Shown here one piece after another: positions 5,649 through 16,590 of a stretch of DNA of 64,000 bases (position 1 is the first letter of the stretch; each line of letters starts with the position of its first letter). The notes beneath the pieces were generated by a model. The model saw nothing but the letters and a program-made list of their open reading frames with translations. It had not been told where the DNA came from and did no database searches. This stretch comes from an uncultured Gemmatimonadales bacterium (lineage in GTDB: Bacteria > Gemmatimonadota > Gemmatimonadetes > Longimicrobiales > Longimicrobiaceae): NCBI GenBank assembly GCA_963716255.1, contig OY970303.1:640001-704000 (forward strand), given 5' to 3'. A program made the position numbers and the translations under genes.

Positions 5649-5783
5649 GCGTGAGGGATTACGGCCCGAAGGGGCGAGACCCGGCGGCAGTTTGCCGGGG
5701 CTCGACTCCGTTACGCACGGTTGTTTCGTGCGTTACGGAGCCGAAGCCCGACCCCGGCGCCAGCCGGGGGCACGCCCGAACCC
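5649..5783 (+). repeat. Family A multi-hairpin repeat (subtype A1)
   Basis: GCGTGAGGGAT...GAGAC-stem-GGCAGTTT-stem-GGCTC...CTCCGTT-stem-TACGGAG...GGGGGCACGCCC, repeated across the window. Confidence 0.9.
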
Positions 5784-5805
5784 GCCGTAGCCGTTCACGA
5801 GCCGT

Positions 5806-6804
5806 TCAGTTGGTGAGGGCGTCGCGGTACCGGCTCCAGTCGTCCAGCACCGTCCCGGCGCCGCGCACCACCGTGGTGAGCGGGTCCTCGTCGATGCGCA
5901 CGGGAAGGCGCGTCTCCTCGGAGAACAGCGCCCCCAGACCGCGCAGCTGCACCCCGCCGCCGGTCATCACGATCCCCTCGTCCACGATGTCGGAGGAAAG
6001 CTCCGGGGGGGTGACCTCCAGCGCCTGCCGCACGCCGGTGGTGATGGCCTGCAGCGGCTCGCGCAGGCAGTCGCGGATCTCCTGCGAGTTGACCCACACG
6101 GTCTTCGGGAAGCCGGAGACCAGGTCGCGCCCCTTGACCTCCATCTCGTGCTCGGAGCCGTTGGGGTAGGCGGAGCCGATGCCGATCTTGACCGCTTCGG
6201 CGGTGGCCTCGCCCACCAGCAGGTTGTGGCTGCGGCGGATGAAGGCGACGATCAGCTCGTCCAGGTCCTGCCCCGCCACGCGGATGGACACGTTGGCGAC
6301 GATCCCGGAGAGCGCCACCACCCCGATCTCGGTGGTCCCCCCGCCGATGTTCACCACCATGCACCCCTTGGGCGTGGTGACGGGGAGCCCGGCGCCGATG
6401 GCGGCGGCGATGGGCTCGGAAAGCATGAACACCTGCCGCGCCCCGGCGGCGATCACCCCCTCGCGCACTGCGCGCCGCTCCATCTCGGTGATGCCGGAGG
6501 GAATGGTGATGAGTACGCGCGGCTTGACGCGCAGGCGCCGCCGCGGGAGAACGCGCTGCAGGAAGTGCCGCAGCATGAGGTCCACGCGGTCCACGTCCGC
6601 GATCACCCCGCCGCGCATGGGGCTCACGGCCAACACGCTGTCCGGGGTGCGCCCCAGCATCCGCTTTGCCTCCAGCCCCACGGCGAGCACCTTGCCGGTG
6701 GAGCGCTCCATCGCCACCACCGAGGGCTCGTTGATCACGATTCCCTCGCCGCGGACGTGGATCAGGGTGTTTGCGGTCCCGAGATCGATCGCGATGTCTG
6801 CCAT
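5806..6804 (-). CDS. mreB: rod shape-determining protein MreB-like actin homolog (orphan paralog)
   Basis: IAIDLGTANT, NEPSVVA, EPIAAAIGAGLP, NIGGGTTE, TPPELSSDI and MTGGG motifs; no mreC/mreD adjacent. Confidence 0.9.
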   Translation of the reverse strand: MADIAIDLGTANTLIHVRGEGIVINEPSVVAMERSTGKVLAVGLEAKRMLGRTPDSVLAVSPMRGGVIADVDRVDLMLRHFLQRVLPRRRLRVKPRVLITIPSGITEMERRAVREGVIAAGARQVFMLSEPIAAAIGAGLPVTTPKGCMVVNIGGGTTEIGVVALSGIVANVSIRVAGQDLDELIVAFIRRSHNLLVGEATAEAVKIGIGSAYPNGSEHEMEVKGRDLVSGFPKTVWVNSQEIRDCLREPLQAITTGVRQALEVTPPELSSDIVDEGIVMTGGGVQLRGLGALFSEETRLPVRIDEDPLTTVVRGAGTVLDDWSRYRDALTN

Positions 6805-6902
6805 TTCACTTCAGGTGTGTGCTGTGGACTGCGAGCGCCGCCCGGCGGGGCGGGCGCCTGGATGCGGGCGGAGGCGCGACGGCGCGCGGGCCGGAAACGG
6901 CG

Positions 6903-6955
6903 AAAAGCCGCCGGCGGCCCTCCCCGCGGCCAGGGGGAGGGAGCTCGCTGGCGGC
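6903..6955 (-). terminator. intrinsic terminator of the proximal riboswitch
   Basis: Minus strand GCCGCCAGCG..CCCTCCCC-loop-GGGGAGGG..CGCCGGCGGC-TTTT; the 5' arm is the aptamer 3' strand. Confidence 0.7.
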
Positions 6956-7035
6956 TCGGCTGGCGTAGCGGGTGGTTCCCGCCGTAGCCCCGTGGCTCTG
7001 CGCCACCGCCTTTCGACGGCTTCGCCCTTTTCAGC
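6947..7035 (-). ncRNA. c-di-GMP-I (GEMM-I) riboswitch aptamer, G20 type
   Basis: Minus strand GCTG-AAAAG-G-GCGAA-GCCGTC-GAAA-GGCGGT-GGCGC-A-GAGCCACGGGGCTAC...TACGCCAGCCGAGCCGC-CAGC: P1, GNRA-capped P2, A47 and P3 match the GEMM-I layout. Confidence 0.85.
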
Positions 7036-7100
7036 TTCGCGTATGGATCGTCCGACGGCACCGCGGCGAGCGCCGCGCGGGAGGGACCGGCCGGGCGGGG

Positions 7101-7144
7101 AAAAAGAATAGCCGCCAGCGCCGATCTCTCGGAATGCTGGCGGC
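7101..7144 (-). terminator. intrinsic terminator of the distal riboswitch
   Basis: Minus strand GCCGCCAGC-ATTCCGAGAGATCGGC-GCTGGCGGC-TATTCTTTTT; the 5' arm is the aptamer 3' strand. Confidence 0.8.
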
Positions 7145-7225
7145 CAGGCGAGCGTGGCGGGCGCGGCCCGCGGTAGCTCCGTAGCTCTGCGTCCCCGCCT
7201 TTCGGCGGGTTTGCTCTTTGCAGCA
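7135..7225 (-). ncRNA. GEMM-I riboswitch aptamer, A20 variant (c-AMP-GMP/3'3'-cGAMP-type)
   Basis: Minus strand TGCTG-CAAAG-A-GCAAA-CCCGCC-GAAA-GGCGGG-GACGC-A-GAGCTACGGAGCTAC...CCTGGCCGC-CAGCA; the base before GCAAA (position 7215) is A. Confidence 0.85.
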
Positions 7226-7283
7226 CCGCCGCCCCACCGGGGGCGTCCGGGATATGTGCCGTACTGTCACCGACTTGATCCGG

Positions 7284-7313
7284 AAGGTAGCCGCTCCGGA
7301 CGGGGTCCGTCAA
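7284..7313 (-). promoter_or_regulatory. putative sigma70 promoter for the riboswitch-mreB leader
   Basis: TTGACG (7313-7308)-N18-TACCTT (7289-7284). Confidence 0.45.
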
Positions 7314-7332
7314 CCCGGTGGGCGCGGCGCGC

Positions 7333-11507: not shown

Positions 11508-11687
11508 CCCCCTCCCACGGCCCCTCCCCGCAAGGGGGAGGGGAGCACGACGACGGCCCTCACCCGGCTCGCTTGAGGCTCGCCACCCTCTCCCGATCCT
11601 GGGAGAGGGGGCAACGGCTGGACTCCGCGTGGTTCTCCCCTCCCCCGCTTGCGGGGGAGAGGTGGCGCGAAGCGCCGGGGTGGGGGG
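11508..11687. repeat. cluster of three family C REP-like palindromes
   Basis: Hairpins at ~11508-11545, 11555-11611 and 11635-11687 of the CCCCTCCCC...GGGGAGAGG type. Confidence 0.8.
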
Positions 11688-11693
11688 TCCCCG

Positions 11694-11850
11694 CGGACGC
11701 CAGCGCGAGCCCCGCGTGAGGGATTTCGGCCCGAAGGGGCGAGACCCCGCGGGCAGTTTCGCGGGGGCTCGACTCCGTTGCAAACGGTAGTATCGTTTGC
11801 TACGGAGCCGAAGCCCGACCCCGGCGCCAGCCGGGGGCACGCCCGAACCC
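11694..11850 (+). repeat. Family A multi-hairpin repeat (A1) with 5' extension CGGACGCCAGC
   Basis: Aligns with the 5649 copy, with compensatory stem changes. Confidence 0.9.
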
Positions 11851-14048: not shown

Positions 14049-14140
14049 GTGGCCTCTGGGTGGGGAACCGGGCTTCGACTTCGTTCGAACGGGGGGCCGC
14101 TCTGGCAAGTCAGGTGCCGGGTGGGACGGCTTCCGGCGGA

Positions 14141-14293
14141 GGGCTCGGGCGTGCCCCCGCTGGCGCGGGGTCGGGCTGCGGCTCCGTAGCAGACGAAACT
14201 ACCGTCTGCAACGGAGGCGAGCCCCGGGAAACCGCCCCCGGGTCTCGCCGCTTCGCGCTCGCATCCCTCACGCGGGCACCCTGCTGGCGTCCG
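14141..14293 (-). repeat. Family A multi-hairpin repeat (subtype A2)
   Basis: Reverse complement aligns with family A. Confidence 0.9.
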
Positions 14294-14350
14294 CGCGGCG
14301 GCCCCGTTCCGCAGTTCCTTGCCTCTCCCGGAACTGCCCCTTCCCGCGGC

Positions 14351-16517: not shown

Positions 16518-16590
16518 TGGAGCGTATCGGGATCGAACCGATGACCTCCGCCTTGCAAAGGCGGCGCTCTCCCAGCTGAGCTAACGCCCC
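16518..16590 (-). tRNA. tRNA-Ala(TGC)
   Basis: GGGGCGTTAGCTCAGCTGGGAGAGCGCCGCCTTTGCAAGGCGGAGGTCATCGGTTCGATCCCGATACGCTCCA folds as a cloverleaf; anticodon TGC; G3:U70 pair; 3' CCA not encoded. Confidence 0.97.

Follow-up and report, generated by a model that had tools for sequence, protein, structure and literature searches.

The window analysed here, a 64,000-nucleotide stretch of contig OY970303.1, carries on its minus strand an ORF of the MreB family, and the intergenic leader of this ORF holds two aptamers of the GEMM-I class (Table 1). A cmscan search of all 64 kb returned three matches over gathering score, of which two were full-length minus-strand matches to RF01051 (cut-off 35) and the third was a tRNA. 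The initial annotation had described two complete GEMM-I-like aptamers upstream of mreB, with an A at the specificity position of the distal unit and a G at that of the proximal unit, and both points were borne out by the covariance alignment, in which model position 11, the unpaired purine ahead of the P2-opening G-C pair, corresponds to G20 of the Vibrio cholerae Vc2 aptamer. Elsewhere in the window, a repeated intergenic element was seen at about 5650-5790, 11640-11840 and 14060-14330, where a number of spurious ORFs translate to identical peptide text, and contigs from RNA libraries show very deep cover at 5700-5817.

Table 1. Features of the mreB leader and its surroundings, in window coordinates.
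Feature	Position	Strand	Details
Intergenic region	6805-7332		528 bp; leader of the mreB ORF
Predicted sigma-70-type promoter	7284-7313	(-)	TTGACG (7313-7308), 18 nt, TACCTT (7289-7284); 7/7 leader alignment
Distal GEMM-I aptamer	7136-7225	(-)	RF01051, 53.5 bits, E 1.2e-7; A20 (7215), A47 (7188), G48 (7187), C92 (7140)
Predicted terminator 1	7101-7145	(-)	Stem 7145-7110 using the aptamer 3' strand including C92, then AUUCUUUUU; -28.2 kcal/mol
Proximal GEMM-I aptamer	6947-7036	(-)	RF01051, 57.3 bits, E 1.4e-8; G20 (7026), A47 (6999), G48 (6998), C92 (6951)
Predicted terminator 2	6894-6956	(-)	Long stem 6956-6906 using C92, short interrupted U tail; -42.8 kcal/mol
Accessory mreB paralogue	5806-6804	(-)	332 aa, stand-alone; phosphate-2 Asp replaced by Asn153 (NIGGGT); TIGR00904, 430 bits
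tRNA, anticodon UGC (Ala)	16518-16590	(-)

Both aptamers resemble Vc2 in matching the whole RF01051 model and in keeping A47 and C92, and the proximal unit, with G20, has the complete G20/A47/C92 pocket. They differ from it in the G at position 48 of both units, where the Rfam consensus has A, in the A20 of the distal unit, which is kept in 9/9 orthologous leaders, and in G23 and G43 of the proximal unit. The base of P2 in the distal aptamer is G-C/C-G, which is Vc2-like and matches the Rfam consensus. Positions 47 and 48, as well as 23 and 43, are counted from what we take to be the Vc2 numbering. For G20 and C92 the numbering is that of Keller 2018. Judged by covariance scores and conservation, the pair is a genuine and conserved form of an already known class of riboswitch.

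The predicted promoter belongs to a TTGACG-N18-TAnnnT pattern that aligns in 7/7 orthologous leaders, although the flanks and the upstream gene differ. A consensus promoter scan missed the TTGACG site, which reaches 8 of 12 matches against a threshold of 9, and the promoter/terminator scan as a whole, with thresholds too strict for such elements, picked up neither this promoter nor either of the long terminators. Contigs from RNA libraries span both aptamers; being assembled contigs, they are uninformative on transcription, strand and termination and carry no weight in what follows. Terminator 1 is more stable than any of 200 shuffled sequences (z -3.58, 0/200 equally stable) and terminator 2 than most (z -2.21, 7/200 as stable), and the terminator folds beat the P1 fold by 16.2 kcal/mol in the distal and 13.6 kcal/mol in the proximal unit. 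Across 12 units from seven genomes, the cost of forcing P1 is 3.9-17.8 kcal/mol. The same arrangement extends through the A20 subfamily, in which a complementary arm follows 110/126 aptamers and the arm together with a T-rich tail is found in 91/126, compared with 7/126 in an upstream control. Since each predicted terminator consumes C92, the leader likely holds two ON switches in series, and folds and conservation together predict that these act independently. Terminator 2 is less certain than terminator 1 on the folding models: its stem is kept in 7/7 copies with a two-sided change in only 1/21 pairs, its U tail is weak, and it competes with another hairpin, which would sequester the U run and is the lowest-energy fold of the segment in 2/5 genomes. 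The proximal unit is unlikely to control the translation of mreB, because 142 nt separate the end of the unit from the ATG.

An orthologue of the mreB gene is present in 6/8 congeners at 79-99% identity, with the A20-then-G20 tandem recurring in four congeners and two sister genomes having just a single A20 switch. The proximal pattern has only two metagenome matches, both of them contigs with full tandems before the same mreB gene. The A/G difference at position 20 is fixed in 7/7 copies of the leader, and the proximal aptamer is kept in 7/7 tandems while spacers and loops vary. Its nearest relative among the 15 other aptamers of the genome is the distal one (70/90 positions identical, the next reaching 68).

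The pairing of positions 20 and 48 bears on how this tandem arose. In a hand count of the first 150 of 272 family-wide matches, reduced to 144 by removal of six from an unpublished genome, G20/A48 and A20/G48 were found 63 times each, A20/A48 13 times and G20/G48 five times, with all five G20/G48 cases belonging to this mreB leader; put otherwise, G48 accompanies 63/76 A20 aptamers and A48 accompanies 63/68 G20 aptamers. The G20+G48 pattern was found in 0/400 other genomes of the class. Among the matches listed for the A20/G48 subfamily, position 20 is A in 132/132, with the search pattern left open to G, and by the record titles of the matches listed, which cover 122 of about 340 stretches, the subfamily lies mainly in Gemmatimonadota. 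The proximal unit appears to be an A20-subfamily scaffold switched to G, and the pair's origin is most simply explained by a duplication with a subsequent A20G change. The direction from A20 to G is drawn from the rarity of G20/G48 rather than from a rooted tree.

The singularity of G20+G48 among 400 genomes would also fit a leader in which only the distal switch works and the proximal one has become a weakened duplicate or a pause element, and the short U tail of terminator 2, its slight covariation and the hairpin that beats it in 2/5 genomes point the same way. We consider this quite improbable, as the proximal aptamer outscores the distal one on the Rfam model, persists in all seven tandems against a background of varying spacers and loops, and has a conserved terminator stem.

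The gene behind this leader is an accessory mreB. Its ORF passes both TIGR00904 and PRK13927, is 65% identical to the housekeeping copy and keeps the catalytic Glu in this genome, as expected of the MreB/Mbl family, yet it stands alone, is riboswitch-led and has Asn at the site of Bacillus subtilis D158. Three mreB genes are found in the genome. One, of the canonical Asp type, adjoins ORFs assigned by eye to mreC and rodA, and thus combines the shape operon with an intact phosphate-2 Asp; the riboswitch-led copy has neither, and it and another copy both stand alone with Asn for the phosphate-2 Asp. Asn153 aligns with the Asp of a solved MreB, and Asn and Asp types split at 100/100 in a tree of 30 rows, from which one unpublished and one cut-short row had been dropped. 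Within this tree the Asn-type accessory lineage comprises 23/30 rows, its members including the window ORF, G000:C1:1769701-1770693, L025 and L026, and in the two orthologues with a single A20 switch Ala moreover stands in place of the catalytic Glu. In B. subtilis, the D158A form of MreB is reported to have lowered ATPase activity and nucleotide affinity and still to polymerise (bioRxiv 10.64898/2026.07.24.740542). No Rfam match was found at the 14/14 non-orthologous mreB loci scanned. Because the mreB here is an accessory paralogue, the proposed control of a cytoskeletal gene would not be control of the housekeeping cytoskeleton.

The distal A20 had been taken to imply Hypr-type GGDEF signalling through cGAMP. 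Hypr GGDEF enzymes are described as carrying Ser where diguanylate cyclases have Asp (PMC6456294). The genome, a single contig of 96.7% completeness, has 21 GGDEF domains, and the specificity site is Asp in 20 of them, the remaining domain not spanning the site. The four tandem-bearing congeners have 71 GGDEF domains, of which 68 are Asp, two Glu and one cut short (from 70 of 74 Pfam matches, four under the cut-off being left out), and a further genome with the single-A20 leader has ten, nine clearly Asp and one partial. Ser or Thr at the site of GacA Ser348 was thus found in 0/21 domains of this genome and 0/71 of the four congeners. The same alignment column reads Ser in 29/29 control proteins, all of which have the GGDEF motif. 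A Pfam search, a six-frame profile search of 71,284 ORFs and a motif scan each returned no Hypr enzyme in this genome, tblastn with the Ser-type proteins of relatives gave only generic GGDEF matches of 31-46% identity, and the Ser-type GAF-GGDEF observed elsewhere in the family was present in 0/9 genomes of the genus. On the degradation side, the cGAMP phosphodiesterase PmxA is reported to carry RxxQ in its HD-GYP domain (bioRxiv 10.1101/600031); in a motif search, 6/6 HD-GYP-like domains of this genome read Rxx(R/K) and none RxxQ. For this genus the Hypr inference therefore fails, since neither a Ser/Thr GGDEF nor a cGAMP-type HD-GYP was found, and it stands as a lead for the phylum Gemmatimonadota, as judged from the enzyme signatures described below.

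Two other candidate sources were set aside. The single CD-NTase of this genome sits in a CBASS-like operon, and SMODS exceeds its cut-off in only 1/5 congeners, so the enzyme is rejected as a shared signal source. A REC-GGDDF protein (G000:C1:5959448-5960650) with a sugar-edge Asn-to-Ser change keeps the specificity Asp, which enforces guanine, and was set aside for that reason. The CBASS-like operon (G000:C1:4822223-4827480) comprises an effector, the CD-NTase, E1/E2-like and JAB-like genes, assigned by eye except for the cyclase, and adjoins type IV pilus assembly genes. The genome also has one diadenylate cyclase domain (G000:C1:837648-838001) and thus probably makes c-di-AMP as well.

A20 aptamers are nevertheless retained in number. 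They account for 7/16 GEMM-I matches of this genome, one of the matches being below cut-off, and range from two to nine per genome in all nine genomes of the genus. One A20/A48 aptamer (G000:C1:4102464-4102538) immediately precedes the gene for a membrane GGDEF of the Asp type, and a sub-threshold GEMM-I-like RNA (22 bits; G000:C1:1008832-1008919) has A20 with G at 47, with a terminator-like stem and an ORF resembling a receiver domain behind it.

Published A20 aptamers are often bispecific. The Vc2 G20A variant is reported to bind c-di-GMP at 53 nM and cGAMP at 120 nM, and the natural A20 aptamer Cbe 1-2 of Clostridium beijerinckii at 30 nM and 463 nM, respectively, so that c-di-GMP is bound as well as or better than cGAMP in both, and A20 in the context of a G-C/C-G P2 base is described as bispecific (PMC6140456). 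For cluster 3 of D. acetoxidans, cGAMP binding is reported to be improved at little cost to c-di-GMP binding. The distal aptamer resembles these in setting A20 on an ordinary GEMM-I scaffold, and differs in that a G20 copy of its own scaffold follows it in series. With the GEMM-Ib riboswitches of Geobacter (Gs1761, Gm0970, pilM) it shares A20 and, as in pilM, a terminator in which the ligand-pairing C is sequestered, and tandems also occur in Geobacter; the P2 base is G-C/C-G here and G-U in pilM, and no Hypr partner enzyme accompanies it in this genome. The pilM riboswitch is described as an ON switch with the same terminator logic, in which changes in lower P2 alter selectivity (PMC9262584).

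We propose, with moderate confidence and from sequence comparison, that the leader comprises serial A20-then-G20 GEMM-I ON switches before an accessory mreB and that both respond to c-di-GMP in this genus. This reading makes the fewest assumptions, because the genus has no writer or eraser signature and keeps A20 switches in number. In the proposed mechanism, the 3' strand of each aptamer, including C92, would fold into the terminator when ligand is absent, and bound ligand would hold P1 and block the terminator to allow read-through. The mreB gene would then be transcribed only at c-di-GMP concentrations high enough to hold both switches open. The A20 unit likely still binds cGAMP and would here be filled by c-di-GMP via a protonated A20, and two switches of unequal affinity may give a steeper response with a higher threshold. 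The tandem would have originated from a single A20/G48 switch, such as that in the two sister genomes, by duplication and a change of A20 to G in the downstream copy.

Several observations sit less easily with this proposal. The weak U tail of terminator 2 would count against it as far as the folding models go, the A/G difference kept in 7/7 copies may be explained by two ligands no less well than by two affinities, and the G48 that accompanies A20 could sharpen selectivity. Further evidence comes from elsewhere in Gemmatimonadota, where two kinds of Ser-type (Hypr-signature) GGDEF were observed, a GAF-GGDEF in part of this family (15/70 members, none of this genus) and a mostly membrane-anchored form in families f5 and f10 (loci of the Ser-type GGDEFs: L207, L206, L208, L211-L212, L216-L218, L221; L174-L186, L191-L196, L199-L200). 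In f5, a Ser-type GGDEF was confirmed by translation in 20/58 genomes, although the exact pattern can miss others. After one unpublished genome had been dropped from the 58, A20/G48 aptamers were found in 12/20 Ser-type-positive and 2/37 other genomes (Fisher 1e-5, kin not independent), and counted by genus in 6/12 and 1/19 (Fisher 0.007, again with kin not independent). G20 aptamers show no such tracking (4/20 and 7/37). The genomes flagged as unpublished (G010, G012, G056, G183) support none of the claims made here and enter only into some of the tool denominators. In genus g14, A20 was present in 12/13 Ser-type-positive genomes and 12/24 others (Fisher 0.013, kin likewise not independent). 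Among kin that are not independent, then, A20 appears to track Ser-type GGDEFs in these other clades, which argues against the one-ligand reading.

Mixed tandems are also found there. Three Ser-type-positive f5 genomes (G317, G218, G128) carry six A20/G48-then-G20/A48 tandems (L309-L314), with units 158-184 nt apart, a terminator after the first unit, a ribosome-binding site directly after the second, and ORFs behind them in which Ig-like repeats were read by eye. These use another G20 subfamily, and the mreB tandem is therefore of separate origin; that mixed tandems seem to have arisen separately in Ser-type-positive genomes further argues against a single ligand. Among at least 122 A20 loci, 42 of which have only about 300 nt of flank, 19 close pairs comprise nine A20-then-G20 (one repeating one of the six f5 tandems), eight A20-A20 and two G20-then-A20. 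Of 75 ORFs downstream of A20 aptamers, 52 are Ig-like/fibronectin, two PilZ, one MreB (the orthologue already counted) and one PD40, with 19 giving no match. PilZ genes follow A20 aptamers in L059 and L125. In L159 and L161 the members of A20-A20 pairs are separated by just 96-111 nt, and as no terminator is apparent behind the first member, the two aptamers possibly share one platform.

These data bear on a two-ligand AND gate, in which the distal unit of the mreB leader needs 3'3'-cGAMP and the proximal unit c-di-GMP, the former coming from a synthase without the Hypr serine, a gene missed by the assembly or an extracellular source. The co-occurrence of A20, and in f5 not of G20, with Ser-type GGDEFs in f5 and g14, the six tandems in three Ser-type-positive genomes, the predominance of A20-then-G20 over the reverse order, the two functional classes suggested by the 20/48 coupling and the fixation of the position-20 difference all speak for it. 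Against it are the lack of a Hypr-signature writer or RxxQ eraser in this one-contig, 96.7% complete genome, the lack of a Hypr writer in the four congeners with the tandem, a CD-NTase that is not common to the congeners, and a P2 base of the Vc2 type rather than the G-U type of Geobacter pilM. For the mreB leader we regard such a gate as possible but on the doubtful side. For the f5 tandems it is the more plausible reading, and on their sequence context these make better AND-gate candidates than this leader. A broader version, which we rate somewhat lower and as rather unlikely, holds that Gemmatimonadota run a cGAMP system read by A20/G48 riboswitches and have built mixed AND gates repeatedly, including the one before mreB, with a synthase of an unrecognised kind in this genome. 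The gates would then precede Ig-like surface proteins in one family and here, through duplication and a single-base switch, an actin paralogue with putatively altered hydrolysis.

The near-invariance of A20/G48 across the phylum, its abundance in genomes without Hypr enzymes and the departure of G48 from the Rfam consensus might instead reflect a third ligand, neither c-di-GMP nor 3'3'-cGAMP, which the leader would combine with c-di-GMP. We regard this as improbable, given that A47 and C92 are intact and fit a guanine-containing cyclic dinucleotide, that cGAMP is the ligand suggested by the link to Ser-type GGDEFs, and that the search yielded no candidate ligand or enzyme.

Tandem arrangements of c-di-GMP-I riboswitches are well represented in the literature, with 347 doublets and 12 triplets reported by Sherlock 2022 (PMC9481103). 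The mreB leader resembles these in its independent switches in series and differs in that, in the sections available to us, the doublets are treated there as same-ligand. Table 2 of that paper, which lists two-input gates, has no c-AMP-GMP/c-di-GMP-I pair, and neither 'mreB' nor 'Gemmatimon' occurs in the portion of its text available. The accessible parts of a dual-biosensor preprint, PMC5888326 and PMC8835794 likewise contain no mixed natural tandem. In the literature searched we found no mixed tandem, no GEMM-I aptamer before mreB and no mention of Gemmatimonadota in this context, a provisional statement from which Kellenberger, Ren and Nelson 2015 may differ; nor did we find a description of cGAMP signalling in Gemmatimonadota.

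The main catalogue of tandem logic gates thus contains no cGAMP/c-di-GMP riboswitch gate, and the mixed leaders described here are short, ready test RNAs. The mreB pair in particular amounts to a one-base experiment set up by nature, in which a single scaffold occurs twice with different bases at position 20. The survey also yielded, as side results at the level of sequence, candidate Hypr-signature enzymes in Gemmatimonadota, the apparent coupling of positions 20 and 48, and an accessory MreB putatively led by second messengers. If cGAMP is needed to open the leader, a synthase escapes current signatures; if c-di-GMP alone opens both switches, A20 is no guide to cGAMP signalling, and a regulon of A20 switches can outlast its enzyme.
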